Shown: positions 6-34,557 of the stretch, piece by piece
Layout: each line of letters opens with the position of its first letter
How positions within the stretch are numbered: position 1 is the stretch's first letter
NCBI GenBank assembly: GCA_964106645.2
Contig: OZ067040.1
DNA: 64,000 nucleotides
Strand: one strand, 5' to 3'
Origin: Podarcis pityusensis
Taxonomy: Eukaryota
The notes under the pieces: generated by a model
The model's database searches: none
What the model was told of the DNA's origin: nothing
Seen by the model: the letters and a program-made list of their open reading frames with translations, nothing else
Position numbers and translations under genes: made by a program

Positions 6-263
<258 letters not shown>

Positions 264-589
264 CTAACTTGAAATCAACGCTCCTGTAAGTAGTTAAGTG
301 GTTTGCTGTAGATAAAAGAGTCGGTGCGCTGTGTTGGTTAGAGCGTCAGGTGCGATCTTGGGAGACCAGGGTTCGAGTCACCACTTGTCCATCAAGTCCG
401 AAGGATGACCTCGGGACGGTCACTATCTCTCAGCCTAGTCTTCCTCGTAGGGTTGTCAAGAGAAAGAACGGGAACCGTGATAATTGTGTATGCCGCCTTG
501 AGCGATTTGGGAGAATAGGTGGGGTAAGAAATGTAAAAATAAAAACAAAAAAAACAAAAAAACTATGCACCCAAGTTTATATTACTTCC

Positions 590-930
590 GTGCTATAAGA
601 AAGCTGCAAAGATAGTGCAGGATAGTGCACACCCCGGAAATGATCTCTTTCAGCTTCTGCCTTCTGGAAGAAGGTACAGGGTTATAAAGACTAGGACTAG
701 CCGCCTGAGAAACAGTTTCTATCCAAATTTTGGTTTTAAACGCAGTGTAAGGAGTCTATGTGGGAGTATATTGTATTTTAAAAATGGGATATCAGAGATT
801 TTAGGGGGCTAACCAGGTTGGGATAGCAGGCTTGTTGGTTTTGAATGTTTTATGTATATATTCTTTTTAAATTTCGTTGTTCTGTATGGGACAATGACAA
901 TAAAGATTATTGTATCGTATCTTGTATCTT
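590..930 (+). mobile_element. Rex1/Babar-type LINE 3' fragment
   Basis: Translates to HPGNDLFQLLPSGRRYRVIKTRTSRLRNSFYP, typical of the Rex1 ORF2 end; AATAAA and a short simple-repeat tail at ~900-930. Confidence 0.75.
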
Positions 931-2000
931 GTGGTTTTTTTTAAAAAAGTGTATCCAATTAAGTTTTAGTTAATAGTAGGCCCATAGAAATTAACAAACC
1001 CAAATCACTTGTGTTCATTTGTTTCACTAGGTCTGCTTGGACTAAAAATTTTTGGATACAACTCTTGGTGCAATTTGTAAAGCAACAATTATATCCTACT
1101 GGAAGGACCTACTGTAAACACAGTATCTAAGAATCACTGTCAAATATTGTCACATTTGATTATCTCTCGTCAAATGATGTGGGTTATCCCTGTTACAGTT
1201 CATTCCGTTGTACGGTACGGTACCTGTAAGCTGCTACTTACGACTTATGATAAGCATTTAACACATTCGTATACCACCCTAGGTAACATTTTATCCCAGC
1301 ATAGTTTTCAATGTAATTTTAAACAAAGCAATAAAACAAACCAGTTAAGAGCAATAAAACAAACAACATAATCAGCGCAACCCAAAAAATAAAACAGCTA
1401 GGGAAACAGCAATCAGAAGCTTCCAGCTTCTATTCAATGAAAACCATTAAAATGCTTGGGGGGGGATGTCTTAACTTGATGCCTAAACAGTAATAAAGTG
1501 GAATCCAGGCAACTCCCATCGGCCTCAGCCTGCATGGGCAATGGACAAAGATGCTGAGAGCTGGGGGGGGGGGGGACGGGACAGGTTCCCCATACCTGCC
1601 CTACAGAAACCTATGGGCAGTTCAAATGTAATGCCAAATCATGATCTCAATGAGCTGTGAGAAGCCATGTTACTCGTGTGCTTCCTCCCCACCCCCTTCA
1701 CATGTGTCAATTCGCTCCCTCCAATCCTGCCTTGAGGAATCACAGTATCAGGGAATTGTAAAGTTGAAAGAGACCGCCCCAGGGGCATCTAGTCCAACCC
1801 CCTGCAATGCAGGAATCTCAACTAAAGCATCCATGACAGATGGCCCACCCAATCATATCCTTCAAACTCTATATCAAATTCCACGATTCTATCTCCTCTC
1901 AGTGGTTTTATAATACAGTCATACCTCATGTTACGTCTGCTTCATGTTACGTTCTTTCAGGTTACGTCACGCGGCGACCCGGAAGTACTGGAAAGGGTTA

Positions 2001-3977
2001 CCGTATTTTTCGCACCATAGGACGCACCGGACAATAGGACGCACTTTGTTTTAGAGGGGGGAGAACAAGAAAAAAAATTTCTCCCCCTCTCTGCCCAGCG
2101 CCCCTTCAGCGAAGTGGCAGGAGGCGCTGCGCAGAGAGGGGGAGAACTTTCCCCCTCTTGTTTTCCCGCTCTAAAACAAGGTGCCGTTTAAGGTGCGTTC
2201 AGGCGGCTACCTTGGAAGCCTGGAGAGCGAGAGGGGGCGGTGTGCACTGACCCCTCTCGCTCTCCAGGCTTCAGGTTCATTTCGACCTGCTCTTTGGGGC
2301 TGGCGGGGGGAAGCCCACCACCAGCCCCAAAGAGCAGGTCAGGGAGCAGCGGAAAGGCGCAGCAGAGAGGCTCCTGCCATAGCCGCCCGTCACCTCTCCA
2401 GCCGGGAGAGCGCCCGCGGGGCTAAAGCAGCCCCCTGCGGCCCTCTCCTGGCTGGAGAGGTGACGGGCGGCTATTGAGGCTCTTGCCATAGCCGCCCGTC
2501 ACCTCTCCAGCCGGGAGAGCGCGCGCGCGGGGCTAAAGCAGCCCCCCGCGACCCTCTCCCGGCTGGAGAGGTGACGGGCGGCTATGGCAGGAGCTTCTAT
2601 AGCCGCCCGTCACCTCTCCAGCAGCCCCACACGCGCTCTCCCGGCTGGAGAGGTGACGGGCGGCTATGGCAGGAGCTTCTATAGCCGCCGGTCACCTCTC
2701 CAGCAGCCCCGCGCGCGCTCTCCCGGCTGGAGAGGTGACGGGCGGCTATGGCAAGAGCCTCAATAGCCGCCCGTCACCTCTCCAGCCGGGAGAGGGTCGC
2801 GGGGTGCCCGCGCGCGCTCTCCCGGCTGGAGAGGTGACGGGCGGCTATAGAAGCTCCTGCCATAGCCGCCCGTCACCTCTCCAGCCGGGAGAGCGCGCGC
2901 AGGGCTAAAGCAGCCCCCCGCGACCCTCTCCTGGCTGGAGAGGTGACGGGCGGCTATTGAGGCTCTTGCCATAGCCGCCCGTCACCTCTCCAGCCGGGAG
3001 AGCGCGCGCGGGGCTAAAGCAGCCCCCCGCGACCCTCTCCCGGCTGGAGAGGTGACGGGCGGCTATGGCAGGAGCTTCTATAGCCGCCCGTCACCTCTCC
3101 AGCAGCCCCACGCGCGCTCTCCCGGCTGGAGAGGTGACGGGCGGCTATGGCAGGAGCTTCTATAGCCGCCGGTCACCTCTCCAGCAGCCCCGCGCGCGCT
3201 CTCCCAGCTGGAGAGGTGACGGGCGGCTATGGCAAGAGCCTCAATAGCCGCCCGTCGCCTCTCCAGCCGGGAGAGGGTCGCGGGGTGCCCGCGCGCTCTC
3301 CCGGCTGGAGAGGTGACGGGCGGCTATTGAGGCTCTTGCCATCGCCGCCCGTCACCTCTCCAGCCGGGAGAGCGTGCGCGGGGCTAAAGCAGCCCCCCAC
3401 GACCCTCTCCCGGCTGGAGAGGTGACGGGCGGCTATGGCAGGAGCTTCTATAGCCGCCCATCACCTCTCCAGCAGCCCTGCGACCCTCTCCCGGCTGGAG
3501 AGGTGACGGGCGGCTATGGCAAGAGCCTCAATAGCCGCCCGTCACCTCTCCAGCCGGGAGAGGGTCGCGGGGTGCCCGCGCGCGCTCTCCCGGCTGGAGA
3601 GGTGACGGGCGGCTATAGAAGCTCCTGCCATAGCCGCCCGTCACCTCTCCAGCCGGGAGAGCGCGCGCAGGGCTAAAGCAGCCCCCCGCGACCCTCTCCC
3701 GGCTGGAGAGGTGACGGGCGGCTATTGAGGCTCTTGCCATAGCCACCCGTCACCTCTCCAGCCGGGAGAGGGTCGCGGGGCTAAAGCAGCCCCCCACGAC
3801 CATCTCCCGGCTGGAGAGGTGACGGGCGGCTATTGAGGCTCTTGCCATAGCCGCCCGTCACCTCTCCAGCCGGGAGAGGGTCGCGGGGCTATGGCGTCTT
3901 CGCTCCATAGGACGCACACACATTTTCCCTTCATTTTTGAAGGGAAAAAAGTGCGTCCTATAGAGCGAAAAATACGG
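2001..3977. mobile_element. TcMar (Tc2/pogo-like) non-autonomous element with expanded interior
   Basis: TIRs CCGTATTTTTCGCACCATAGGACGCAC / GTGCGTCCTATAGAGCGAAAAATACGG with a TA duplication. Confidence 0.85.
2370..3895. repeat. GC-rich array of alternating inverted ~30-35 bp units with a ~481 bp higher-order repeat
   Basis: Core ATAGCCGCCCGTCACCTCTCCAGC(CGGGAGAG) appears ~16 times forward, alternating with ~15 reverse-complement copies. ORF-track peptides recur at a +481 offset (2584/3065, 2666/3147). Confidence 0.95.
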
Positions 3978-4896
3978 TACTTCCGGGTTTCACCGCTCGC
4001 GCATGCGCAGAAGCACAAAATGACATCACGTGCATGCGCAGACGCAGCGAATCGCAACCCACATGTGCGCAGACGCGCTACTGCGGGTTGCGTTCTTTTC
4101 ATGTTGCGAACGGGCCTCCGGAACGGATCCCGTTCGCAACCAGAGGTACCACTGTACTGCTCGAACAGAAAACGAAACCTGTGGCTCGCACTCATCCTGC
4201 AAATCAGGATACAGGCAGCGTTAAACCTAAAACACCTCTTGGAGGTGAACCTAAGGCTTGGGGTGTACCCTTCAGCCCCACAATGCTTACCCCAAAAAAC
4301 TACCTCCTAGGAGAAAAGAAACCTGGAACGCATCATGCTAGCTTGACTTTCCTTTATTTCTTTTGAAGACTCCTAGGGCACACATACAAACAAAATGTAG
4401 GCTTTTTTCTTCTTCCTTCAAGACCTTTTAGAAACTGTTCCAGCCATTGATTACCTTGCCATTATTTCACGGTGAGGTCCGTAAGGCGTAGCTGTTAAAA
4501 TGGAAAAGAAACCCTATACATTTTTAACACAGGGCCCTATTTTTCCATTTGCCTGGGCTCTCTCCTTTAAGAGGTTTCGTTGCCATTTACATTGATTTCT
4601 TTTTCTTTTACCATAACACATTCATTCATTAAATCAAGGGTGTACAACTCTCAGGTCTGGAGGGCCAACTATAGAGCTCCAGAACTCTCTCTGTGGCTTT
4701 CAGGACTCTGCCTAGGCTACATGCCTCTCCTCAGACCACACATCTTACCAGCCCTATGTCACCAGCCTCCATGAGTGCTTTTGCCTGCCTGTAAGCTGCT
4801 CTTGAACTGTGATAATGACTCTTGCTCACCTGAATGGAGAGACAGGTGTGCAGGTACCGAAAACTCTTGACTTTTGCATGGTTGAAATGTAGTCTA

Positions 4897-5111
4897 CAGT
4901 GGTACCTCAGGTTAAGAACTTAATTCGTTCTGGAGGTCCGTTCTTAACCTGAAACTCATCTTAACCTGAGCTACCACTTTAGCTAATGGGGCCTCCCATT
5001 GCCACCGCATGATTTCTGTTCTCATCCTGAAGCAAAATTCTTAACCCGAGGTACTATTTCTGGGTTAGCAGAGTCTGTAACCTGAAGTGTCTGTAACCCG
5101 AGGTACCACTG
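4897..5111. mobile_element. Tigger-like MITE
   Basis: TA|CAGTGGTACCTC...GAGGTACCACTG|TA. Confidence 0.85.
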
Positions 5112-5231
5112 TACTGTACAAAAGGTTAAGATTCACAGCTCTGGTCAATGTTAGAAACTCAAGTTATATAAGCCAATCACTGAATGGCACCTTAAAGCTA
5201 GGTTGAAGTCACCACAGCGAAATGTCTAGGC

Positions 5232-5670
5232 CAGGGTTAGAAACTGAGATAGAAAAGCTAGGAGCCAAATGGCTTCTGGTACCTGGGTTATGAGCGCCAT
5301 TGTGGGGGACACAATACTTTATTTATTATTTTGATAAGCATGAACTAATATGCAAATCACATAAGTGACACATTGTTAATTTCACAATTTTAGAAGAAAT
5401 TGTAAATACATGTTTAATTTGATGTTTACAATAGCAATATTGGTACCATACTTCAGTTTTCAAAACACTCTACTCTTTAATCCAAACTCTTCTTAATTGT
5501 TAAATTCTTTAACATATTGTCTCTCCTTAACATATACTTTGAGGCTTCAAAGCACATACATTGAGCGTCAGCCAGGCACAAAAAATTGCACCCACACTTT
5601 TTGAGCTGCTCACAAACAGAGAATCTTTAGGCACAAAATGCATCCGGCGCCCTGCTAATTTCGAACCCTG
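5232..5670. mobile_element. hAT-like non-autonomous transposon
   Basis: TIRs CAGGGTTAGAAA / TTTCGAACCCTG; perfect 8-bp TSD GTCTAGGC (5224-5231, 5671-5678). Confidence 0.8.
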
Positions 5671-5942
5671 GTCTAGGCACCTTTTTTTGCAATTTAATTT
5701 ATTATTGCTATTCATTTCTATACAACTTTATTTTTTAAAAAAAATAAATATCAAAGCTGTTTACAGCACATTAAAACACCAAATAAAATCCAGAATAAAA
5801 CAAGTTCAAGCTTCAAGGAAAATATTTCAGATACTTCTCTAAGTGACATTTTGCTTTCCCCATATTTATTTACCTACTTAATTCATATAGCTGCCCCATA
5901 GCAGAGGGACTTTAGGAAACCAGAGTGGTATAGCGCTTAGAG

Positions 5943-6077
5943 CAGGCATCCCCAAACTCGGCCCTCCAGATGTTTTGGGACTACAATTCCCATCATCCCT
6001 GACCACTGGTCCTGTAAGTAGGGATGATGGGAGTTGTAATCCCAAAACATCTGGAGGGCTGCGTTTGGGGGTGCCTT
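5943..6077. mobile_element. hAT-like palindromic MITE inserted in a tRNA-derived SINE
   Basis: ~135 bp hairpin (GGACTACAATTCCCATC...GATGGGAGTTGTAATCC) with 8-bp TSD GCTTAGAG. Same family at ~9449-9583, ~15190-15330, 38674-38809 and 48852-48987. Confidence 0.75.
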
Positions 6078-9000
6078 GCTTAGAGTGTCAGACTAGGAGC
6101 TGGGAGATCGGGGCTCAAATCCCCAGGGAAGCTCACTGGGTGACCTTGGGCCAATCACAGCCTCTTGTCGTACCTCACAGGGTCGTTGTAACGTTTATCT
6201 GAGGAGGGGGAGGAGCCATGTACTCCTGAGGAAAAGGTGGGATATAAATGCAATAAATAAGCTCTTCTGCTTACTTTCTTAAGAAAACAGGAGGGGCCAG
6301 TCACATGGAGGTGTCAGTTGCGAACCTGGCATCCAGAGACCTCCATGTGGTCACAACTGGACCTGTGCCAGTCGCAAAACGCACCAGGGGAATTTCTAAC
6401 ACTGCCTCTGACCATGCCCATCACGGGCATATGACCCATGGGGATGCAAACTGAATTCCAAGACTGAAAAAGGTTCCCCAGCTCCACATTAAATGAAAAA
6501 TGATTTAAAAAAAAAAAAATTAAAATGCAGGCAAGGCAGACACCCTCACAGAATCCCAAAAGAACAAGAGTCTTGCCTTCACTAAGGACTAGCTCACACA
6601 TGCATGTTCACTGCTCCTTATCTACAGCAGCAAGCCGCCACTTAGTGCACATGTGAATGAGCCATCACAGATCAAATGCCTGCCTCCCCCCCCCCCCCCC
6701 GGCAGAACTGCCGTATCATCCAATGTCAATTCAGAACCACGGCACTTCCAAATGGAGACAGCTTGCTCATTCTGCTGAGAGCCACCAAGCTTCGGAGGCG
6801 GGGGACTAGTGCCATGCGTGACTCAGCCCTGGGTGTGTTTGAATTCATGCTTGCTGCTCGTTAATAAGTGCCCTGTTATCTTAAGAGGATAATTTCACAT
6901 TTGCAGAGGGTGGGTCACCTCAACAGTATAATGAAGTGGATGAAGCAGCAGACCGGTCGCAGAAGAGTTTTGCGCAGAAAATGTCAAACCTTTCTCCGTT
7001 TGCACAGCCACCTGGCAGAACTCTGGACGCAAATCCGAAAGAAGACAAAATCTAGGCAAGGCTTTCCCCATCATACAAAACAGGCTGAAGTGGTGGGCTG
7101 GTGGACTGCGAATACTGCGTTGTGAATGCAGTAGCCAGACACCTGGGCTTGAGCTGATCATCTGGCCAAACTGCATGACACCAAACTGCAAAGTCTGGAC
7201 TCTACGGTTCTTTGCATCTTACCGCAACCTCACACACAAAAACCCTGAAATGCAAAGTCCTTTGCTGCCTTTGCACCCGGTCTCCTTCCCACCCCCACCT
7301 TTTGGGCCTTCATCTGCTGTTCTTTTCGAAACCTGCTTTTATCTCCTTGAGCCGAACTCTCCTTGGGTTTACTCTCCCAAAGAGCTAATTAGGAGTCACT
7401 CCATGCTGATCCGCCCCAAAGCCAGTGAGAGGAAAGCAACAAAAGGATTGGTAAGCTAGTCACAGTGCAGGATTTCAACAGAGAGCTTCCCCTCAGCTTT
7501 GAAATCGCCTTCCTCCTGAGGTTCCAATGCCCAAGGCAGAGTAACATTGGGAAGAGGATTTAAGAAGTGAGCAAAGTATAGATTTGCAGCATAATAATGA
7601 ATGGAGACGTTAACAATGAGGCTGGGAAGGAGGAGCTGGAGGGGAGGGAGAGTCCATCGTCCAGACATCAACGCAGTGGTGATAAAATCCAATGGATCAG
7701 AGCTGTTTGCTGAGGACAAGGCCCGGGCTGATCAAGTGCTGCAAGAAACAGATAGGCTCAAAGATACTGGTCAATCTTGACCATGATCAAGTTAACACGC
7801 TTTAGGAGAGCTTGCACCGCACGACCAAATGCGTTTCTGGAACAATGGTGATTCACTGTGCTCTGGAATGTAAAGTATTGTGGCAATATGCACCCTTTGG
7901 GAAGAAGGGAGCACTACGAATTGAATGAATGAATTTTATACGGCTATAGCTGCACACTTTATTATTTCGTGCAAGCAATGATGCAACTGCCTTTGTACTC
8001 AGCGAGATTTTAATTTTTAAAAGGCTACACGAAACTAGATGAGGAATGGCTGTGTGTGTGTGTGTGTGTGTACGCGCACACACACACACACACACACACA
8101 GCCCTCTCTCTCCAGAGCCCTGGCAAATGTGAAAGCAGGAGGAGATTAAACTGGAGCTGGTATAAACAAATATATCAAAGGGGAGGGGAGGATTCTGCAG
8201 GACACCTAGAAACAGGAGAGACAGGGAGAGAGAGAGAGGAAAAAATAACTCAAAGTGAAGCAGAACCCCATTCCTAAATGCTGCCCTCGTTTCGCCAACA
8301 CAAGGCTGGCAGAACTTCCCCCTGGATTCACTCCAAGTTCGTTTCTCGCCTCCCAAATCCAACCCTTAGCAGGTTAATTCAAAACGTTTCAAAAATGGCA
8401 TTTTAAAAAAAGGCTCAAAGAACAGGAAGCTCTCCTTACAGGTTTGTGTAGCCCCTCTTTCCCCTCAATGGGGGAGGAGGAAAAGCATTTTTAAGGTCTA
8501 CGCGATGTGGGGAGGGGAGAGAGAAAGGCTGTGGATGGCAGCTATAGGAAATGGGGGAGGCATTCCCTGGACCAGGGGGGAAAAAAGAGTACTGTGGGAA
8601 GCAAACTGGACCAAACAATGCTCTCCAAAAGACATTTGGAAATGGATGGCCCTTTTTCTGCTGCCCAGCCCTCGCTCCCCACTTCTCTTACAAGGGCCAT
8701 GGGGCGCCTTGCCAGCCCCCACCCCACCCCCGCTGCCTGCTGAATATTAACAGGATCTCACCACAGCCAGTTCATTATAAGTCTGAAGAGGCCCTGTGCC
8801 ACTTCTCAGCGCATCCTTCCCCAGAATCTTGAATAGAGTATATTAAAAAGAGGGAGAGAGAGAGAAAGGTTCTATCAGCCTGTCAGTTGGGAGTGTTTTT
8901 TAAAGAAAAGACGAATACACGCGCAAACGAACCTCAACAAAACCTCCACAAATTATAATGACTAATATGAGCCCCCCTGGAAGATTTCTGGTTTAGAAGC

Positions 9001-11699
9001 ACCTGGCGACAGCAGAATAAGCAGAAACAGCCTCTTATTGTTTTGCCCAGAGGAGATCAAAAGATTTAAAAGGCAACAAGCAGCCTTATTGGAAGTTCCT
9101 GCAACTGAATTGCTGTGCTTTCATCAGAAACGTGCTTGCACAGAGTTTGCTGGCTTAAAAAACAAGCACACTGTCCCACCCAATTTTTGAGGACAAGAAG
9201 AAATATAAGAGAGTCTCTCTCTCTCTCTGGACTTAAACTATATGTGATGCTTGCTGCTGCATATTTTTAAGCCACTAATAGCAGGCAACAAGGAGGGATG
9301 ATTTTCATCAGGACCTTTCTTTCCCTGCTAAAATTTCCCATAAAAATCGCCTCCCACGGCTGCTACCATCAGCATGGAAGGAAACGTGGTTTTTTGGCAC
9401 CAGTGGAACGTAAGAAGACTCCCCACTGGAAAAGACCAATGGACCAGCTCAGGCATCCCCAACCTTCAGCCCTCCAGATGTTCTGGACTACAATTCCCAT
9501 CATCCCTGACCACTGGTCCTGTTAGCTAGGGATCATGGGAGCTGGAGGTCAAAACATCTGGAGGGCCACAGGTTGGGCTGCCTGGCCCAATGACCTGTTC
9601 TCTCAGAGGCCAACCAGATGGCTATGGGAAGTCCGAAAGCGGGACCTTAGCACAACAACACTCTCTCCCCACTTGCAATTCCCACAACTAGCATTCAAAG
9701 AAGCATTGCCTTCCAAAAGTGGGGACAGAACCTGGTCATGGGGGCTAGTAGCCATTGAGAAGCCCTGTCCTCCATGAATGGGAGCTTCCCTCTTGTGGTT
9801 AATAGCAGCCGGAGGGGGAGAAGGCGGCCAAGAAGAAAGGTTTAACCTCTTCCCACGCACTGTTGTTCTGATGAAAATGCCTGTCTCTGCCAAGCGGCTG
9901 CTTTTTTAAAATAAAGAGGGAGCAGCGAGTGCCGAATTTAGCATCACATCCAGTTTCGGCCTTCTGTTCCAACTCTGAAAATGACAAAGCAATAAACACT
10001 TGAAACTCAAAAAGAGCTCGAAATATCTCTTTTTAGGATTTCTTTCTCACGTTACAATTTAGCATCCCAAGGTAAGTAGTCGGAAGAAGATGGTTGGGGT
10101 TGGCGAAGGTATCCCTGCATCGCAGGGGGTTGGGCTAGATGGCCTTTGGGGTCCCTTCCAACTCTATGATTCTATGAAAAGTAGCTATAGTAGAATTGCA
10201 GGATGTGGGCTATTAGCAGCAGAAACTTAGGATCTCCTGCCCTTTTTGTCAGGGTCTTATAAGTGAACAGGTTTGCAGAATCCTTCATTCCTCTTTATGT
10301 GGTAAGGAGCTACTGTAACCGTTCCTCCTCCTGGCTAGTGGGATGGAAGAACCACAGCTTTTTAGAGCCAAGGTACAAAACCAGATGTCCCATGCAATGC
10401 ATCTTTTGCTTGACATCTTAGATTGCAGAAGCGATCAAATACCTGAATGATTCCTGCTTCCATATAAAAACTAGCACACTTGTAAAAACTGCACTGTGGA
10501 CAACTGCAAGGCTTGACCATTCAGTAAAGTTGGGTATCTCTTTGTTCTTCTGGCAAAGAGTACTCTCTCTCTTTTAATTTGCCTACATATTTATAATCCA
10601 CACTTTTTTATATATGTAAAAAATAAAGACATTTGTTCAACACAGGAGAATAAAATCAGCATAAAAACATCAATAAATACTCATTGGCTTAAAAAAAAGA
10701 AAATTCATGTTAAGAACAGAAGAAATCTGGATAGAAGGGTGGTTCCTGCCAAACCTCTACTGGCAGTGAGTTCCACAGGACAGGGCCTGCCACACTTAAG
10801 GCTCAGTCCCTTTTCACACTTTACATTTAAACAAAGTCTCTCATTTCTGAGGTCCCAGCATTGCAAGACTTGGGTATCAGCACTGGCTCTTGAAACTGCC
10901 TTTGCCATGTTGATGTTTCCTCATTCAATGTTCTCTCTCACACCCCTCTCCCTTGGGTCTTCATCCACTGTTCATTTTTAGACCTGCTTTTAAAATGTGT
11001 GTGCGTTTGTGTGTTCTTGTTTCCACTATGCAAGATTCTCTTCAGTTGTGCTTGCCCTGAAAATGAATAGAGAGCTTTCCTAGTGCTGATCCACTCAAAA
11101 GCCACTAAAAGGAAACCAACAAAGGATCTGGGCAACATAGCATGTCTAGGCTAGAATCCATCTCCCTGACCTGCTAGCATCTTGAAAGCACAGGAGCTGC
11201 TCTGTTTCGTTTTACTGAAAGGCAGGGAGCATCCAAGCATTTAGAGCAATGCGGTCCAGCAACGGGCACCTCTGGGCTGTAGCTCAGCTAATGAGCATCT
11301 GCTCTGGATGAGCAAGGCTCCAGGTTTAATCCCTGGCATCTCCAGGTAAGGGCTGTGAGAGATTCCCAGAAAGATGCTGCCAGTCAGCTAGATGGACCAA
11401 TGGTCTGACTTGGCATTGAGGCAGCGTCCTAAGCAGCCTTGGTTCCCTCTTCTTTGTCATTTCCAGGAATGACTCTTAAGTCTGCTCACTGTTCCTTCAA
11501 CCTGCTCGTGCTCTTTCTGAAGCCGGAAGAACAAGCAGCTGCAATGCAATTACCCCTCCGTGTGCTCTGAGCAACAACTGTGCTTCAGACTAAGGGGCAG
11601 GTTTCATTTCCTCAAGCATCAGGGCCACACTGCAAGGCACCCACTGCTGCATGGGCGACTTTAAGAGGACTAGGCAAATTGACGGAGGGTAAGGCTATT

Positions 11700-12196
11700 A
11701 GAGATAGATGCCTGTGGAAATCACCTTGCCAACAAAGGTCCGTATAGTTAAACCCATGGTTTTCCCTGTAGTGATGTATGGAAGTGAGAGCTGGACCTTA
11801 AAGAAGGCTGATCACCAAAGAATTGATGCTTTTGAATTATGGTGCTGGAGGAGACTCTTGAGAGTCCCATGGACTGCAAGAAGATCAAACCTCTCCATTG
11901 TTAAGGAAATCAGCCCTGAGTACTCACTGGAAGGACAGATCGTGAAGCTGAGGCTCCAATACTTTGGCCTCCTCATGAGAAGAGAAGACTCCCTGGAAAA
12001 GACCCTGATGTTGGGAAAGATGGAGGGCACAAGGAGAAGGGGACGACAGAGGACGAGATGGTTGGACAGTGTTCTGGAAGCTACCAGCATGAGTTTGACC
12101 AAACTGCGGGAGGCAGTGGAAGACAGGAGTGCCTGGCGTGCTCCGGTCCATGGGGCCACGAAGAGTAGGATACAACTAAACAACTAAACAACGAGA
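11700..12196 (+). mobile_element. RTE-BovB LINE, 5'-truncated
   Basis: Translates to TKVRIVKPMVFPVVMYGSESWTLKKADHQRIDAFELWCWRRLLRVPWTARRSN...; CAA-rich tail; 28-bp TSD. Confidence 0.92.
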
Positions 12197-15100
12197 AGGC
12201 AAATTGACGGAGGGTAAGGCTATTGGTGGCTAGAGACAGCATGTCCCTGTATACCAGCTGCTGGAAGGGAGAGCACTGTTGCACTTATATCCTGTATGTG
12301 GGATTTCCACAGGCATCTGACTGGGCACTCTGAGGATTGCATGCCCAGATAGGCCACTGACCTGGCCAGCAGGGCTCTTCTAATGTAGACTTCTGAGCAG
12401 CCCTTGACACTGGGGCCCGCCCCCCAAGTGTTTGAAATTCATTGCCATACGGAGAGGTAATTTTATTAGTGTTGCTGGAAAAAGAACTTTGCGGGTTTCT
12501 CTATCACCACCTCTGCTTCTCTCTTTGCAAACTGGAGCAGCTCATTTCTAATTGTTCCTTCCGGCATCTTTATTAGGGCTGCCAGTGCTCTGCCCTGAAG
12601 AGCTGGAGGGTAGGAAACTTCCCAAAATCACATTGGTGTCTAGCTGCGAGGAGCTCTCCAAGATGTCAGGCAAATATCCTTCGCACATCACCTGCTACAT
12701 GAGCCTTTTTTTTTTTTTAAGCTGGGGATCCTAGGGATTGAACCCGAGGCCGTCTGGACTCAAAGCATGAGCTCTACCCGTAGAGCTATGGTCCATCCAC
12801 AGTACATGTCAGAACAAACAGAGCTTGATATGATGTTGAGCTTGCAAGTGGGGAGAACTTCCTCTGCTAAAGTAAAGCTCCAAGAAGGGCAGTGGGTGTG
12901 ATGCAATGCATCAGAAACACAGAACATGGTACTGGATTCAGGATTAACATGGTACTGCTTATTCTGCTCCCACAAAAACTCAGTATTCATAAAAAGGAGC
13001 GGGCAAGCTTCCTGTTCTTGTGGCTGGAAAGGCATGCTTGAAAGTGTGTGGTTAATGCCTCCTGAAATCTCAGCAGCCGGAGAATTGATAAACAAAGACT
13101 TCCTAAGCTTGGTTGGCTAGGTGGGGGGAGAAAAACAGGAGTCCAGTGCCTTCTGTTGGTTTTTGTCCATCCCCACTTCCTAACTAGAAAAACCAGGATA
13201 AATTAAGTAACACGGAAATGGGGAATAAATTAAACAAGGGAAATTATGCAAGTGTGCTCATTTTTGCCCTAGCATATGGACATTGCAGAACTGAACTTTT
13301 GTTGATGCAGAATTTCAATTTTATTTGTTTGAGCAAAGAGTAAACATGGTCCTGCCCTGCACACTGGAAGCAACTACAAGCTAAAGGCCGCTGCTGCAAT
13401 AATTAGTTTCAATGAGAGAACGTATCAGCTTGCACACATGATGATTTTCACACCTCAAATACCTAAATTTATCCTTTGCATGGGGAGTAACTGAGAGACA
13501 AATTATTTTGGAGGAGAGAGCTGGAAACCTGCAATCAGTTTTGCCTAAGGAAGACATGCCCCGTCAGCCTATGTAAGCAATAAGTCTGTACTTGCAGGAG
13601 ATAATGGGTGTGGCTTCCATTTGTACGACTAGTGTTGTACCTTTGGCAGCGGCAGATCTGACATAGGAGAGGAATTGCAAGGAACATCTTAATGCACATC
13701 AGGAATGGAGCAGGGCAGGATTGTTCAGTAGCAACACCAGTCCAGACCTCAGAGAGATTCTGGCAAACGAACCATACTAGGATGCTGGTTCAAAATCAGA
13801 AGGCATCAGATAAAGAACCAACTCATGACTAAATGTGCATTGAATGAGTTTGGTTACGCACTGGTGCCACAGCTGCCATTGAAAGGAGTTGCAGATTTAC
13901 GTCTACAAGGCTGGCTTTGAATTGCATGTAGGGCACAGGCCCTTTTCTCTACTTTAAGCGGGCTTTGCTTAGGTCAATAGTTTCAGAGGGCTGCTGTTTC
14001 CGCTCTGCTCTGCGACCAGAATTCCATCAAGAAGGCATCAAAAAACAATGCAGACTTAAAATGTGCCCTGCTCTCTATGGGAGCGAGACAACGGGAGTTC
14101 TTGGTTTGTGTCCAGATCTCTGCACATTAAAAGCCTGCACACAGACATTATATTTCAGCATCTGATTGCTCTGGTAACTGCCGGGTTCACCTCTATGTAG
14201 ATGCACACCCATTAGAAGCAACTAAAGATCATTCTTTGCTAGGGTGTGACTGTTGCCCAGCTCCAACATAGCAGGCAGGAATAGAGGACAGCTTCTGAGC
14301 TTCTCCGGCCCATTTGCTATTCTAATTATTTTCAGCCCAAAGAACATCTTGCTAATGGATGCAAGCTGCTGAACAGTTTGCAGGTTTTCTTCCATGCCTT
14401 CCCCAATGTGGAGGAAGAACGGGATAAATCCCAAGTACGGAAAAATAGGGATTCCTGACCCACATGACTTTGCCATGAGCTTTAGTGCTAGGCCCCTAAA
14501 CAGTTAAGTTAGGGAAATCTAGGAAATCTGGAATATTTTTTCCCAGCCCTACTCAAGAGGGTAAAAGCTGACACTCCCAATTCTTTCATGCCAACTGCTG
14601 GGGCATAGCAACAGCTTCTCAGCCGAAATTAACGGAAAGCCTCGAGTTAGTTTTACACTTGCTTCCAGGATGCTCACAATTGCTTAGCACATTCTTAGGT
14701 GTCACACACTCACAACTATGCTTTCAGAAACTGCATCGGCATTGTTTTTTTAGCAGGCTGTGTGAAAACTAGAGCTGTTGTTTCATTGAATAGTAATAGC
14801 CATGCTAGCGCAATAGAACATTATTTACTGATAGTTTGAAAGAACTCCAGCCATCGTCATTAGCAACTTTTAATCAATGCCACAAGGGTAGCTGTATTCT
14901 GGTGCAACAAAAAATATGACAAGAGTGCCTAGTGGCATCTAAAAAGACTATGGCTGCAATCCTAACCATGTCTACTCAGAAGTAAATCTCAATGAATTCA
15001 ATGGGGCTTACTCCCAGATTAAGTGGGGTCCGTACGATAGCCTAAAATATTTTCAGCAGCCTGACCTCACTTTGTCATTTTATTCCCCCTCTCTTCGGCC

Positions 15101-15928
15101 ACATTCACACCATACATTTAAAGAACTTTGATACCACTTTAGACTGTCATGGCTTCCACCCAAAAACTGTGGGAGCTGTAGTTTGTTTAGGGCTGGCTTC
15201 CTCAACCTCGGCCCTTCAGATGTTTTTGGCCTACAACTTCCATGATCCCTAGCTAGCAGGACCAGTGGTCAGGGATGATGGGAATTGTAGTCTCAAAACA
15301 TCTGGAGGGCGGAGGGTGAGGAAGCCTGGATTAGGGTGTTGAGAGTTATTAGGAGGCCCCTATTCCCTCACAGGGCTACAATTCTCAAGAGTTCCCAGTG
15401 GAGAGGTATTAACTGCTAGCCACTCTGTGAATTGTAGCTCCTAAATGGAATAGGGCTCTCGCAACAACTCTCAGCACCCTTAACAAACTGCAGTTCCCAT
15501 AATTCTTGGGAGACAGCCGTGACTGTTCAAAGTGGTGTCACAGAACTTCGAATGTATGCTGTGAATATGGCCTTGATGCCCACGAATATACATATCTGTG
15601 AATAAGCGTTCCTACATTATATGAATGGGGCTCTTGTCCCTGAATGTTAGGACTTACAGTAAATCTTCAAGACAACAATATAAGAAGAGAGGCATTTCCC
15701 GGTGCCTACTTAGTCCCTTTCTTCACCCTACTCTACCTCAAGCCAATAAAAGAAGTCTGTTTCTGCAACCAGAGATGGTGATGAATATTAAATTTGTATA
15801 CCACCCTTCATCTGTAGATCTCAACATAAAAACACAAGATAAAAAACACAAAATGCATAATAACAACAAGAACAGGAACAAACCAATAACCCTCTCTGCC
15901 CACCCCAAGCTGAATCTTACTTCAACAC

Positions 15929-15947
<19 letters not shown>

Positions 15948-15971
<24 letters not shown>

Positions 15972-16113
15972 TTATTATTATTATTTATACCCCACCCATC
16001 TGGCTGGGTTTGCCCAGCCACTCTGGGCGGCTTCCAACAAAATATTAAAAATACAATAAAACATCAGACATTAAAAACTTCCCTAAACAGGGCTGCCTTC
16101 AGATGTCTTCTAA
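15948..16113 (-). mobile_element. L2-type LINE 3' end with (ATT)n tail
   Basis: Reverse complement of the 3' end of the element at 26880-27778. Confidence 0.8.
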
Positions 16114-17942
16114 AATTATGGGACAGCATCTTCTACTACATCTGAGAGCAACCAGCTACCTTTGGGGAAAGCAATAACCCTGTCCTCACTGCCATTAGGA
16201 GATGGAAAGCTTTCTACAATACATTGTTTGGTTTAATCCAAAGAAAGGGCACTTGTAGACTCCCAACTCCTAACCAGAATGGCCAAGGTCACAGATGACG
16301 GGAGCTATAAGTCCAGCTATTTCTGGAGAGCCACAGTTTCTCCCACCACCAACAACCTGGGTGTGATCAATAATATTATCAAAGGGATCTAACCTTGAAA
16401 AGCTAATGTTTAGGACTCCTGTGATTCAAAATGGGAAGGAGAGGTCTACCACCAACACATTCAAGTAGGAAAACGGGAATCTTCCATTGACTCAGGAAAT
16501 GCTAGCCTGACTCCTCCCTGGGTCATGTTGTGGGAAACCCCCCAAGATATCTGCTGACCAACACAGTGGATGGTGTTCCTCTTCCTACTTGGGACACAAT
16601 GAGCAAATATACACGAGGTGGAATTCCCAATTGTGTTTACATATTTTAGTACGGTACTAGAATTTTATTATTCCAGAGTTGCCCCGAATTATTAAAAGCT
16701 ATTGATTGAAGGATATATCTTTGGAGCACTCTCGACTTCAGACACAAAAAACTTCTTCCAAACTCACAGCTGATGAAAAATAATTTCAAGACCTAGGCCT
16801 CCATTTTTAAAAGCTATTATCAGATCCTGCAGACCTTTCCAATTCCTAGATGACAGCATCAAGAGTTTAAGAACCCAAGCAACAAAGCAGCTGGAATTTT
16901 CCCAGCCCTATCTTCAAGTGACCGTTAAATGGACCTTTGTTTCTTATTCCAAAATAAGACCACCTCATGTTTTCCAAGGCTGAGGTGTCGGTGCTAAATG
17001 GAAGCAGACCCCAAGGAGGGGGAACCTTATCTACCAGAACCTCATCAAGAAGCCTCAACGAAGGATTAACTCTAAAAGAACTTCACTACCACACAGGCAT
17101 CCTCATCTTTGACAATACACACATTGTATCATGGGAAGAAGAACCCCTGTACTTCAAATCCTGCAGCACTGCTGTTCCTTTAACACAAACTTCACCAACC
17201 TGGTGTCCTCCAGATGTTTTGGACTACAACTCCCATCAGCCCCAACCAGCATGGCCAATATCAGGCATGATGGGAGGTGTAGTTCAAAAACACCTGCAGC
17301 CCCAAAAGATGTTTCAGTCTAAATAAAGAAACAGATATTTTTGTTCTAACCTTTCTCCTTTTTTTCTATTTACAATACAGCCATTTATTTGAATTTCAAG
17401 GAGGGGAAAAAATGCAAAATCTTCTTTTAGATTTTGAAAACAAGTCCGCAACCTGTACGCTTTTCTACCACAGTCAGTTCCATGAATGCCACCCTTCACT
17501 TGAATTTCTCTGCCATTAATTCTGTGAACCAAAACGGTATTTTGGTAATCTCCATCTACCCTAGATACACACACTTGATTAGTCTTCTGTTCGGTTCCTT
17601 TCCTACAAGGTTTAGTTCTCACCCTTTATCCCTCTTAATTAAAAAAACAAACAAACCCCATAAAATAGTTTCTGCCTATTTTTCATCTAAAACAACCATA
17701 TTTTATAATTAAATAAGAGGGTAGGTAAAAGAGCTCAGGAAATAATCACAAATTACCAAAACCTAATAGATGGATTATATTCAACACTTATACAAAATTT
17801 ATAATTGTCCGAACTGTTTTATGTATGATTTTGTTGCAATCCGTAAAACAACCACATAAGATACGGTATATCATTATTATAATCACCATGTTTCAGATGA
17901 GGAAATGGAATCTGCTGAGGCCATGTGGCTTGAATGGAAATA

Positions 17943-18193
17943 CCGTATTTTTTGCTCTATAAGACTCACTTTTTCCCTCCTGAAAAGTATGTGTGTGCGT
18001 CTTATGGAGCGAATGCAGGCTGCGCAGCTATCACAGAAGCCAGAACAGCAAGAGGGATTGCTGCTTTCACTGCGCAGCGATCCCTCTTGCTCCTCTGGCT
18101 TCTGAGATTCAGAATATTTTTTTTCTTGTTTTCCTCCTCCAAAAACTAGGTGCGTCTTGTGGTCTGGTGCGTCTTATAGAGCGAACAATGCGG
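17943..18193. mobile_element. TcMar (Tc2/pogo-like) MITE, related to 2001-3977, unexpanded and in opposite orientation
   Basis: TA|CCGTATTTTTTGCTCTATAAGAC...GCGTCTTATAGAGCGAACAATGCGG|TA with an internal hairpin. Confidence 0.8.
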
Positions 18194-18527
18194 TAATTTC
18201 AGGAGTTCCAACACCAACAGTAGATTTGAATTTTATAGTTCAGACACTTAATTATTATGCTACATGCTAAACCACCACATATTGCAGCCCCTCACATGCT
18301 TTTTCGGCTTGCGTAGAGCTTTTATTTCTACTGGTGGTTTCCATTCTTCCTTTACTAAACCCCGTCTCCCTCTCTGATCTCACAATAACCTATCAGCACA
18401 GGGGCTGATAGGAACACTGATGGAAGTTGCAGTCCCAAATATCTGGTGGTCCCCATGTCAGGGAAGGCTCCTCTAAGCCAACCAGACTGCAACATACATC
18501 ATGCAAAAGATGACTTCAGCATCCTAC

Positions 18528-18653
18528 CTCTTCTGAATTCTCCGTGCCTCCATCTTTGCCACTGCCACTGCTGCCACCACCACCACCGCCGCTGCTGCTG
18601 CTGCCGCTGCTGCTACTGGCTTTCGTAGTGCTTTTAGTAGACTTTGGAGGCTC
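18528..18653 (-). CDS. PPP2R5D: PPP2R5D coding exon 2
   Basis: cctccttag|GAG CCT CCA AAG...GAA GAG|gtagga gives EPPKSTKSTTKASSSSGSSSSGGGGGGSSGSGKDGGTENSEE (126 nt, phase 0-0), matching mammalian EPPK...GKDGGGENTEE. Confidence 0.93.
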
Positions 18654-22985: not shown

Positions 22986-23039
22986 GTTGCAAACCTAGAC
23001 CTGCAGGTGTGTGTGCACTGATTTGCTCGTGAGTGTGTG

Positions 23040-23800
23040 TGTGTTGCACAGGTACACGGATCCTGCGTCGAAGCCCCGGGCTGCTGCAAGTGCAGCTGCT
23101 TCCTGCCCGCGTCCTCGGCCCCCTCGGCGCGCGGGGCGGCTCCACTCCCGGCGGAGGCCCCGAGCTCGGATGCCGCCAGGCCCCGGGAAAGGCTTTGGCG
23201 CCCGGGCGCTCCCGCCCACCCCACCGCCCCGGCCCTGGGGCGGGGTGGCGCCAGAGAGAGATGGGGGTGGGCCGGCCCCGGGGCGCCGCCGCCCCCCGCT
23301 CGCTCACCTTCTCTTTCTTCAGCTTGTAGGGCATCCCGGACCTCGAAAGCGCTCGCTCGGCCTCTCCCGCCGCCGCCGGCCCGGCCTCCTCTCGTCGCCC
23401 TCCCTCGGTTTCTCCTCGCCGCCGCCGCCTCCTCCTCCCTCCTCTGCGCTGGGTTGGGTGAGCCCCCGATTGGACCTGCTCGGCCCAACCTGCCTGGCAA
23501 CCGCCTCGCTGCCTGCGCTTCATTGGCCGCCGGCGGCCGCGCCGATTTTTGCAATTGGCCGGCCGGTTTGAAGGGCAGCTGGGGAGGGCGGGAGGAGGCC
23601 GCTGCCGGTTTTGCAAAAAGGCGCCGCCGCGGTTGTAGGGGAAGCGGGTGGGATTGGAGGAGGAGGGCGAGGGGGCTTCTCTGCCGCCGGCTGCTCGGGG
23701 TGAGGGCGGGGGGCTGCCGGATTATGGATATAGGTCACCATGGCTGCTTCGAATAAGTTGGAAGGGGTTTGGGTGCCGCGACTGGGCGCCCTTTTGTGAA
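23040..23800 (-). promoter_or_regulatory. PPP2R5D CpG-island promoter with four CCAAT boxes
   Basis: Very GC/CpG-rich stretch around exon 1. ATTGG (minus-strand CCAAT) at 23469, 23522, 23554 and 23653, with one pair 32 bp apart. GC-box-like GGGCGG motifs are also present. Confidence 0.8.
23308..23334 (-). CDS. PPP2R5D: PPP2R5D coding exon 1 (MPYKLKKEK)
   Basis: ATG CCC TAC AAG CTG AAG AAA GAG AAG|gtgagc inside a CpG island; identical to the recalled B56-delta N-terminus. Confidence 0.95.
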
Positions 23801-26800
23801 ATAAGGGACCAACTGGGGTAGTGCAGCGTGCAGGCCGCTTTCTTTCTCTCTGTGTGTGTCTCTTTTCTGTGTCATTGTCAAGGAGAAACGCCGATGGAGA
23901 AGGCAACCCCGCGAAGTGAAAGGTTGCCGTGAATGAAGCTGCTCCCAAAGAATGGCAACTGCATTGCAGTTATAATTCTTTGCACATTGCACACACACAC
24001 TTAAAAAGTGCCAGCCATTAATAATGTTTTGGTCGCTGCTCCTTCAAGTACGAGGTTCTGCTATTATATGAAGCGGCAGTTTTTTTAAAAAAAAATAAAC
24101 AATAGGAGGAACCATAAAACAGATTTAATAATAATAATAATTACAACAACAACAATTGAAGACTCTTCTAGGAAAATGGGGTTTATACAGCCCAGCTCCT
24201 AATCAAGATCCACAATCGGTCAGAGAAAATAAAATTGAGAGAGGACTGGAACAATAATTCAGGACCTATTTAAAATTTCAGTAGAACCACATGAGAGAAT
24301 TTAAGCGCTGCTTAACATTCCTGTTGAAACTGATGGGGCTTAAGTTAGCTTAGGTTTGGCTGGTTTGTGCCCAGCTTTTTCAGGAAAGAATGAAAGTGAA
24401 AACAAAAAGGCTGAAATCCTAAACACAACGGACTAGAAGTGAGTTGGGTACAGTATTTAGCTCTGAGTTCCTTGGAGAAAAGAGAATATAAACTGTAACA
24501 ATCAAGAATACTTAAGATCCAGAATCCACTATCCTAATGCAGTTAAAGACATTTCCAGTGGATCCAGATATGAATGCAAACGTGGGTGCCCCAACAAAGC
24601 AAGGCTGAAATCAAATTGGTGCTTAACCCGGGAGTAAGTCCCACTGAAAACAATGTGACTTACTTCTGAGGGGAGACAGAAAGACTTGCACTGTATTGTC
24701 TGATCAATATCTAGGACAGGGCAATAAAAAATATTCATCAAAAAAAATTGAACCATTTTTCAGGAAAATATTCTGAAATATGCAGCAACAACATAACAAA
24801 CTTTAAAATAGTATGTACAAACTGCAGCAAGTTGCCCAGTACAATAATAAAACATAATATAGTCAGAAGAAAACAGCACCACTATTTTAGCAGCTCAGTT
24901 AAAAGCATTCCATAAAAGCAGCAATGAACAAGTGTGTCTTCAAGTGAGGACTGCTTAAAAACTTGTAGAGAGTTGGCACAGCCTTGCTACAAAAAAGGCT
25001 TATGGGGCTGGAGCTTTTATTTTGGAAAAAAAATATTATCCAAGGAGGAACATGGTAGAGTTTTATAAAATGATGGAGAAAGTGAATAAACTTATTCCTC
25101 CTTCCCTGTGAAAATAGAGTAAAATGTGCGGCCTGAGTCTGCAAGCTGTACTGAATTCAGTGGGGTATGGTAACATCTTAAAATGTGCATAGGATTACAG
25201 CTTTGGTTGCTAATTTCAGGAATTTTAAAAATGACTTGTTTGCACAATGCATAATTAATTGATGGAATTAATTGCTGACAGATGTGGTGATATACACTAG
25301 CATAGATGGCTTTCTTTAGAATTAGATGAATCAATGTTCATAAGCTTATCAATGGCTACTAGTCACAAGAGGTGCATAGAAGTTTCCTAGAAGCAACCTA
25401 AGTAGCAATTACCGGTAGCTTCATCATACCCAACTTAAGAGCTTCACAGGGACGCTTGAATGGGTCCTGTCAAAATGCCTTTAGATGGGCCTCAAACCAG
25501 GACTCTTCAGCATACTTACCAGGAAGAAAATACGGCATTTACATTTCTATAAATATGCTTAAAACTGGATGTAGGTCTGACCCTGCAAAGCAACTATCCC
25601 ATGGAGCACAAGATCCATTCAGGTGGTCCACAGAAATATTTTGGAAGAGTTTAGGGTACCTGCACTTGATTTATTTGTTCCTGATAGTGGAAATTTAGGC
25701 CATTTTGACACAGGCTAGATTTATCAAAGAGGGGACCAAAGCCCTGGTTTAGGATCTGTGATTTTTATAACAGTACTAATTTCCCCCATGAAATCTGCCA
25801 GTTAAAGGTACCATTCTCAGTGCCCCAGCCTGGGGCTGTGATTTTCACAATATAGTGATAATTTTGACAAAAATGTTAGTGCTGAAGAGGGGGGAAAGTT
25901 TGGTAAGTGGTCAGCTGAGACCCCCCAGCAATTTTTAATTATCTGTGTAGGAAAGTGGTTTAAGAACTGCTGGTTTAGTTCCTCAGCTCTCAAACTGAAT
26001 GGAGGGAGGACATAAAGCTTTTATTGTACTTCATACCAATCTGCTAGCCAGATTTCAACCAAACAAAATGACAGTTCTCGATAAGGTGTTTTCAAACAAA
26101 AAAACCCCACAAAAAAACCCTAAATGTTTTAATTATTTTTGCAAGAGATACATAAACAAGCAGAACAATATAAAACAAACATCAACAATCATACTGCAGT
26201 AAGGATACAAAATAAACACTGGGTGATCATCAGCAAATTCTTATATCAGAACTAAAATGAAGAGATCAGGAGATCATTATCAGGACTTTCAATAAAGAAA
26301 ATGTGTTTCTCATTTTTTGCTTTAGTTTTTTTGTTCTCTAACCCAAAGACCAACGGTGCCTTGGAACTGTATCAAGCCAGATAGATTTCTGGGAATCAGT
26401 TGGAAGGTTTAGACCACTTCGTTAGACCACATAGGTTATAAATGGGTACCATGTACCATCAAACAGGCCCTTTTTATTTCATTCCCCTTAGCTGTCTGTC
26501 TGTTGCATTCAGCCAGTTTTTCTCCTACTGCCAGATTCCAGGCCTTTGCCACCAATTGATAATAAGGTATGACAAATATATCACAATCTCTAAGCACGCA
26601 GCCCTTAATAATAATAAAAAGGATTGAAGGTCTTGTAAACTGCATTCTGCGTTGTTTCAGGGAATATGGACATGCATGTGAGACTAGGGTCCATCAGAAT
26701 AAGTTGCTTATCTATTCAAGGAAACAGAATACAAACAAAAACCTATGGACAAGACTGGCCATGGTAAAGCAGTTGCCAGAACTGACAATCTGTACCTCCT

Positions 26801-33359: not shown

Positions 33360-33651
33360 CCCTCTTCTTTGCGTGGTGGCTGTGCCACGGTCGGGAGGCA
33401 GAAATGCTTCCGAGCGACAGCTGCTGGAAACCGCGGAAAGGGAAGAGCGCTCTTGTGCGTCCGCCGTGAGCCCACCCCTGCCAGCGGCGCCACTCTAGAC
33501 GCTCGTATCTCTAGTTATCCGCACGTCTACTTTCTCATTGGGCGTTTTCCAAACTCGGGCCGGAAGTGCCCGTGAAGGGGCGTTCCTTCCTGCGCCTTCT
33601 CTCTGTGGTCCTCCCGGGAAGCTTCCTCCCCGCCGCTCTGAGGGCCTCTCT
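33360..33651 (+). promoter_or_regulatory. PEX6 CpG-island promoter / 5' UTR
   Basis: CpG island continuing through exon 1 to ~34620. ETS/GABPA-type CCGGAAGTG at 33560-33568 and inverted CCAAT (ATTGG) at 33537-33541. Confidence 0.7.
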
Positions 33652-34557
33652 ATGGCGGTGGCGGTGCTGCGCAGCCTGGGCGACGCCGCCCCGCAGGACC
33701 TGCCCGCGGCCGCGGGGCTGCTGGTGGCCCCGGCCGACGGGCAATGGGCCTCGGTGGCGGCGGCGGCCTCGGCGGGCGGTCCTCTGGTGCTGGCCGTCCG
33801 CCCGGCGGGGTCTGAGGCGCAGCCGGTGCTGCTGTGCGCGGCGCTGCTGGAGGCCGAGGCGGCCTCGGAGCCGGAGCTGTGGCTGGGCCGGGCCTTCCTG
33901 AGGCAGCTGGGCCTGGCGGCGGGGAGCCGCGTGCGGGTCTGGCCCGTGAGGAGACCGCCGTTGCTAGGCTGGGTGTTGCTGGGGGCGGCAGGGGCGGGGC
34001 GGGCTCCGCGCCCCGCGGCCGCCTCGGGCTCCAGCGTCCTGGTGCGGCGCGGGGAGACGCTGCCGGGCTCGGGGCTGCTGGTGCTGGAGGCCCGGCCGGC
34101 CCTGCAAGGGCTGCTGGGCGCCGGCACCCGCTTGGCCGTGACTGAACTGAAGGGCGGCGGCGGCGGCGGGGAGAGTCGGGAGCGGAGCGGGGAGCCGCCG
34201 CCGCCGCTGGTATCTGCGTGGGCGCACGGCGGGGAGCGGCTGGTGAAGGCGGAGCGGGGCCACGCAGCCCTGTGGGGAGGCGAGGCCGGCGAGACCTTGT
34301 GGGTGACCCGCGGCGGCCTGCGCAGCCTGGGCCTTTTCCACGGGGAGTGGGTGTCCGTGTCGAGGCCGGAAGGCGGCTCCCGCCACTTGGCCACCGTGCG
34401 AGCTCTCGACCCCCGGTGGTACTTCTCCCTCGCCGAGGACAGGCGACGCCGGGCCGCCGAGGAGGACGCCTTTCCGCACGAGAGGGCGCTGCTCCCCGCC
34501 ACCTTGGCTTTCAACCTGTCCTGCGACCCTCTGGAAGGCGCGCTCCTTAAAATCCAG
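33652..34557 (+). CDS. PEX6: PEX6 exon 1
   Basis: MAVAVLRSLGD...GWVLLG...LLVLEARPALQGLLGAGTRLAVTEL...LAFNLSCDPLEGALLKIQ|gtgggt; 906 nt. Confidence 0.93.

Follow-up and report, generated by a model that had tools for sequence, protein, structure and literature searches.

An array of alternating inverted repeats in a PPP2R5D intron of Podarcis pityusensis is probably the internal cargo of a young, non-autonomous Passer-like transposon

In the rolling-hairpin termini of parvoviruses, flip and flop are one sequence present in two inverted forms between inverted arms. Spacer inversion and arm homogenization are, in the accessible text of two published accounts, the signature of template switching (PMC8604942, PMC5453318). 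Amplified internal arrays are known from MITEs, including Xmix and Xstir (T2-MITE, Xenopus) and miDNA4-Xt, a Tc1/mariner MITE with a satellite motif (PMC6004289, PMC9659126 and PMC6947457, as far as their accessible parts go). Regularly spaced alternating units in head-to-tail modules, with length polymorphism and a proposed non-autonomous mobility, are described for bacterial BIMEs in the accessible part of PMC2817692. Template switching, slippage and MITE-borne arrays are each known; their combination is unreported in the literature searched. None of the papers listed by that search deals with a MITE whose array alternates and has flipped spacers, PMC7325037 and PMC2955051 added nothing specific, and the family may already be catalogued in Repbase or Dfam.

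In this study, we analysed a 64-kb stretch of P. pityusensis DNA (64,000 nucleotides of contig OZ067040.1, assembly GCA_964106645.2; hereafter the window) that contains an array of alternating inverted cores. Like the parvovirus termini, the array contains the same sequence in both inverted forms, set between inverted arms; unlike them, it is internal, many-fold, inherited and rarely flipped, and we saw neither a terminal hairpin nor a nicking protein, nor flip and flop in equal ratio. With Xmix/Xstir and miDNA4-Xt, as described in the accessible text, it shares an internal segment that has grown into a tandem array of variable length and been spread through the genome: near-identical copies with fixed ends are dispersed (318 left ends; young arms with 0–2 substitutions in 460 bp) and their internal unit number varies (1–63 cores). 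It differs in belonging to another transposon family (Xmix targets TTAA), and neither alternating inverted cores nor flipped spacers figure in the accessible accounts of those elements. Spacer inversion, arm homogenization and new inverted repeats are shared with local template switching of the Ripley type (four-point model, PMC5453318; PMC8604942); the events set out in the accessible parts of those papers are single and lie in unique DNA, whereas here they are repeated in a tandem array and multiplied by transposition. BIMEs, with their alternating units and head-to-tail modules, are alike by architecture only, with homology not to be expected, being tied in the accessible account to REP-associated tyrosine transposases and lacking TA-flanked Passer-type ends (PMC2817692). 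The features of the locus are as follows.

222..18527, minus strand: putative second intron of the host gene PPP2R5D, with its donor after 18528 and its acceptor before 221
1916..4154, plus strand: outer MITE of ~260 bp, split by the inner element; its ends are of the CAGT type and it has a TA duplication of its own
1999–2000 and 3978–3979: TA target duplication of the inner element
2001..3977, plus strand: non-autonomous Passer/pogo-like DNA transposon of 1,977 bp, youngest subfamily (from its ends and TA duplication)
2001..2027, plus strand: left terminal inverted repeat, 27 bp, two mismatches to the right one
2366..2378, plus strand: allele x, ancestral-type 13-nt spacer ahead of the first core (from sequence comparison of spacers)
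2379..3870, no strand assigned: array in which 31 cores of 24 nt alternate, with 15 loops and 15 spacers between them (8 of the spacers forward, 7 reversed)
3005..3375, plus strand: ~370 bp extra compared with 23-core siblings, in direct orientation (from alignment to sibling L063; exact placement within the repeat is ambiguous)
3844..3895, plus strand: last core plus tail, a quasi-palindrome of ~52 nt that stands alone in single-core copies
3951..3977, minus strand: right terminal inverted repeat, 27 bp
23334, minus strand: putative PPP2R5D start codon (upstream exons placed from motifs and splice signals)

The 24-nt core matches 31 times in the window, always within 2379–3870, and the 16 forward and 15 reverse occurrences alternate strictly, as a first-pass annotation of this DNA had claimed; 25 are exact and the other six carry one mismatch. 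All 15 spacers between a reverse and the following forward core are 13 nt long. TGAGGCTCTTGCC occurs five times and its reverse complement three times, GGCAGGAGCTTCT five times and its reverse complement twice, each within one base of the position first given for it. Both orientations are thereby confirmed, but the two 13-mers, at first taken for separate sequences, are alleles a and b of one spacer, differing by 2 and 1 substitutions from allele x, the 13-mer preceding the first core. The loops of 20–50 nt between forward and reverse cores also sort into few classes, each with an orientation. A higher-order period of 481 bp, likewise noticed earlier, is present in 2.3 copies with 95% matches and is due to the extra stretch of ~370 bp relative to the 23-core siblings. 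Descriptions of the block as structure-prone and CpG-dense also hold: the first 235 nt of the array, which make up its first two units, have a folding z-score of −19.7 relative to 200 shuffles, and its 1,517 bp contain 152 CpG, an observed/expected ratio of 0.81 compared with 0.38 for the window.

The first-pass annotation described the units of this array correctly but overlooked the terminal inverted repeats and the TA duplication enclosing it. By inspection, the element consists of ends plus repeats. Its 27-bp terminal repeats start with CCGTA, as in known Passer elements, and like those of Passer (pogo) are shorter than 30 bp; the right one, read to 29 bases, is by eye identical at 27 of 29 positions to the Passer repeat of Anolis carolinensis listed in the supplement of PMC9976928 (Table S1, row 332). 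A similar subterminal second motif, compared by eye, and the TA target duplication are also shared with the Anolis element of that table. Unlike Passer elements, the present one appears to have no transposase gene, and its interior is a GC-rich hairpin array. It was likely mobilized by a Passer (pogo) transposase. An autonomous partner with these ends was not found among the 12 of 150 DDE_1 matches inspected and two BrkDBD matches, and at none of these loci do such ends enclose a cognate DD35D transposase that has Brk and HTH domains; the single end-like match, at one of the 12 DDE_1 loci, lies outside Tigger-type ends, and both BrkDBD matches are weak and without these ends. A sister variant of the terminal repeat has 3,195 exact matches genome-wide, and the branch of 318 copies examined here belongs to a much larger group of Passer-like MITEs.

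The element occupies a TA at the centre of the outer MITE, where short inverted motifs lie on either side of it. Ends like those of the outer MITE adjoin DDE_1 transposase frames at 10 of the 12 loci checked, and the outer MITE is, to judge by sequence, of the Tigger type and older than the inner element. At least 150 DDE_1 matches occur genome-wide, many in open frames of 575–576 amino acids, which suggests a large recent Tigger-type family in this genome. To the left of the outer MITE lies a very high-copy short repeat (window about 1760–1850). The host gene is identified by a match of window 21–179 (minus strand) to human B56-delta (PDB 8u1x_B residues 55–107, E = 1.3e-26); the exon ending at 221 is database-matched, and B56-domain exons follow just beyond the window. 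In the PPP2R5D frame, the same exon contains a run of 12 glutamines (window 183–218). Two upstream exons, on which the intron number rests, were placed by peptide motifs and splice signals only and are presumed to belong to PPP2R5D; one includes a serine/glycine-rich low-complexity stretch (window 18588–18618). CpG-island-like stretches occur at 23001–24000 and 33501–34500, the first spanning the putative start codon. The earlier description of the block as a new CpG-dense insertion within a PPP2R5D intron is borne out. No host function is implied, and no effect on PPP2R5D is shown.

Exact matches in the genome number 318 for the 32-nt left end and 1,335 for the core. The 101 elements parsed comprise that of the window, 39 taken from the best matches to the left end, one locus found by searching with the core and 60 further elements, which complete the left-end list on contigs C1 and C2 and begin C3. 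TA flanks both sides in all 100 copies with both ends recognized. The core is carried by 84 of the 101 elements and other arrays by 17; of the 68 copies on C1 and C2, 43 are old and 8 young, the other 17 being sister copies. A tree was built from the array-free arms of 79 of the 101 copies, with a midpoint root only, leaving out the 17 sister-array copies and five others (L110, L112, L114, L118 and L138) that are truncated, interrupted or have an unrecognized right end. In this tree, 32 young copies fall on one side of a branch with support 99/93. Their arms differ from those of the window element by 0–2 bases in 460 (0.16%; 0.19% outside the stretch used for picking) and are identical in 15 of the 32, window included; old copies lie ~2% from their own majority sequence. 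The junction specific to young copies occurs 47 times in the genome. All 15 additional young copies, fetched afterwards as a check, contain the same units, and TA lies on both sides in 14 of these and thus in 46 of the 47 young copies. By hand count, the 47 hold 5–63 cores (median 25); the family ranges from 1 to 63 cores in elements of about 500–3,600 bp.

Two sister subfamilies share the left end and carry unrelated, head-to-tail, hairpin-rich arrays. On C1 and C2 they account for 6 (L101, L111, L122, L125, L143 and L147) and 11 (L115, L119, L120, L128, L133, L137, L139, L145, L149, L151 and L156) of the 68 copies. Their loops are without clear flips (forward in 35/35, 78/78 and 99/102, with three ties), a 4-nt loop class counts 23 forward, 1 reversed and 6 ties, and the arms of these arrays are shorter or imperfect. 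Among copies with the core, AT-rich insertions of about 1–1.6 kb, apparently LINE-fragment-like, interrupt the arrays of L110 and L138.

The array is, we believe, probably the internal cargo of this young non-autonomous transposon, its flips having been made by a few ancestral template switches and its length then changed by slippage in each copy. The first-pass annotation had instead proposed that it grew at this locus by repeated fold-back, in the manner of flip/flop ends in rolling-hairpin replication. Spacers occur in both orientations in 31 of the 32 young copies fetched first. Of the 15 spacer–loop–spacer triplets in the window, 14 are present in other copies, 13 of them in at least 15 copies. 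Compared with L063, a 23-core copy, the window element aligns in forward orientation only, over 1,605 bases with nine mismatches and one 370-bp gap, and local inversion is therefore not needed; the history of this copy would require only direct-repeat change, for example a 481-bp duplication together with deletion of a 109-bp unit. A loop of this copy, at about 3763–3809, is absent from the rest of the 32 young copies fetched first and may be explained, in a comparison by eye, by a direct-orientation donor (the tail). Arrays have been carried by transposition, since loci share either the entire unit order and length (L186 and L187) or a rare 67-nt loop (L179 and L189).

Growth by fold-back at this locus accords with the presence of both orientations, with the very strong folding and with the fact that inversions are real in the family; yet the same units recur at 46 other loci, for the most part in matching order, the window element is not set apart from L063 by any inversion, and 31 cores are unremarkable within the range of 5–63. 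We regard it as highly improbable, the array being already held by the family in 47 young copies with the same units, which largely removes the case for local expansion. Part of the original reasoning survives: exact reverse-complement spacers show that slippage alone cannot place one spacer in both orientations, and these, together with whole-loop flips in the family, establish that inversions between inverted arms took place. The strict alternation needs no repeated fold-back, once the unit is taken as core–loop–reverse core–spacer and copied head-to-tail. Nothing seen supports rolling-hairpin replication, in which a flip is expected at every round; a private orientation is found in 2 of 594 young loops.

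Reads can fold back at palindromes, and the array in the window was read from the assembly: the contigs of five public runs at both flanks broke in neighbouring repeats, none bridging unique DNA to either junction. An assembly or sequencing artefact would nevertheless have to recur at 47 loci with unrelated flanks, 46 of them with TA duplications on both sides, and to reproduce shared unit-specific substitutions and a CpG-biased decay. The separate flanks of the 47 loci make it very unlikely indeed, to the point of being barely conceivable.

Flips were counted only where whole loops or spacers were reversed. Whole-loop flips private to one copy were found in L078 and L086 among the young copies (2 of 448 loops in 32 copies; none of 146 in the 15 later ones) and in L130, L138 and L159 among the old; in L130, a block of three units is inverted, and short deletion loops are never reversed. 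The figure of 2/594 counts loops only and is a lower bound, because both spacer orientations pre-exist and fresh spacer flips are invisible. A scan for reversed k-mers gave flags in 15 of the 32 young copies and in 16 of 51 old ones, mostly in short segments that resemble single substitutions, often at CpG, and that were excluded from the count. Unit order differs among all of the first 32 young arrays, and 14 of the 15 later arrays are distinct from each other; a minimum-spanning count of length events (35) is degenerate, one 5-core copy linking to all, and array distinctness only was used. Flips are recurrent but much rarer than length change, which is nearly universal.

In cut-and-paste elements, abortive gap repair can alter the interior. 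The array could be inherited cargo and still owe its flips and length changes to break repair rather than to the fork, through repair of the gap after excision or of a cruciform that has been cut, the inverted cores undergoing crossover or conversion with each other. Under this reading it is natural that all 32 first-fetched young arrays differ although their arms carry 0–2 substitutions, a rate of array change so high relative to the arms that a link to transposition is suggested, and that a block of three units was inverted in L130. Some arrays were, however, copied between loci with unit order unchanged (L186 and L187), and the flips of single 38–48-nt loops between adjacent arms fit the local switch set out in the accessible text of PMC5453318. 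A replication-fork switch and recombinational repair would look alike in the sequence; on balance, we hold break repair to be unlikely.

Under template switching within inherited cargo, the array may have arisen in six steps. A quasi-palindrome of ~52 nt near the right end, likely the seed of the array (3844..3895), would have come first; it is seen in single-core copies, which make up 9 of 52 old copies, and all four of those folded form a hairpin of −20 to −25 kcal/mol. An inverted duplication would then have produced a forward–inverted–forward triplet, the arrangement (F–loop–R–spacer–F, the palindrome plus an inverted and a direct copy) of some old 3-core copies, although the order of events is conjectural. 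Single-core copies are scattered over the tree, so that some or all may be collapse products, leaving these first two steps unproven as ancestral. Third, head-to-tail copying of a unit of ~110 bp would give alternating cores, as displayed by other old copies that repeat the F–loop–R–spacer unit with forward-only spacers.

Fourth, occasional switches between inverted arms would flip spacers, loops or multi-unit blocks and match the arms; the products are observed, and switching at the replication fork is their presumed origin. A reversed spacer is found in 22 of 52 old copies, and copies beyond two sub-clades of the midpoint-rooted tree have no reversed 13-nt spacer. Exact inversion between inverted arms is evident from the reverse-complement spacers and from the whole-loop flips of L078, L086 and L159. 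Homogenization of the arms is also visible: old reverse cores include variants 2–3 bases off the forward core, whereas 410 of 449 young ones are its exact complement. In L134, two cores enclose a perfect palindrome of 28 nt, made up of a spacer fused head-to-head to its reverse complement, which looks like a separate fold-back event.

Fifth, one rearranged master would have given rise to the 47-copy subfamily, one copy of which would have inserted into the older MITE in this intron. In the main loop class, 106 of 113 old loops are opposite in direction to 249 of 448 young loops, from which we infer a young master with a block inversion and a 38-nt loop left in the old direction. Last, the window copy would have gained 370 bp directly relative to its 23-core siblings.

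Of 23 substitutions in the arms, where CpG bases make up 52 of 460, 9 are CpG transitions; of 79 in the cores, where 4 of 24 positions are in CpG, 32 are. This over-representation suggests germline methylation and a methylated block rather than a CpG island. It also bears on the idea that the hairpin array is favoured, whether by aiding transposition, by resisting deletion or by being kept for an effect on PPP2R5D. The median of 28 cores in 32 young compared with 5 in 47 old copies could be read in that way, as could the amplification of other hairpin-rich units by two sister subfamilies with the same ends. Older arrays have, however, had more time in which to collapse, some young copies contain no more than 5 cores and CpG decay is evident; selection of this kind appears quite improbable.

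These observations do not amount to a new replication mode. Their value lies in a well-preserved natural series within one genome, from quasi-palindrome and inverted triplet through tandem growth and flipped spacers to a recent burst, when long near-perfect palindromes are otherwise hard to keep. Dozens of copies with near-identical arms permit a rough estimate of the rate of loop inversion relative to slippage and point mutation. As a conjecture that we consider distinctly doubtful, a vertebrate pogo-type MITE lineage would repeatedly breed hairpin arrays, one branch of them BIME-like, with growth and flipping driven by transposition and favouring spread. If true, the ~50 near-identical copies would be a natural reporter of template-switch inversion in the vertebrate germline, with a rate of at least 2 in 594 loops compared with about 0.002 substitutions per base over the same time. 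A transposon that spreads kilobase hairpin chains into introns could yield fragile sites and highly variable markers.
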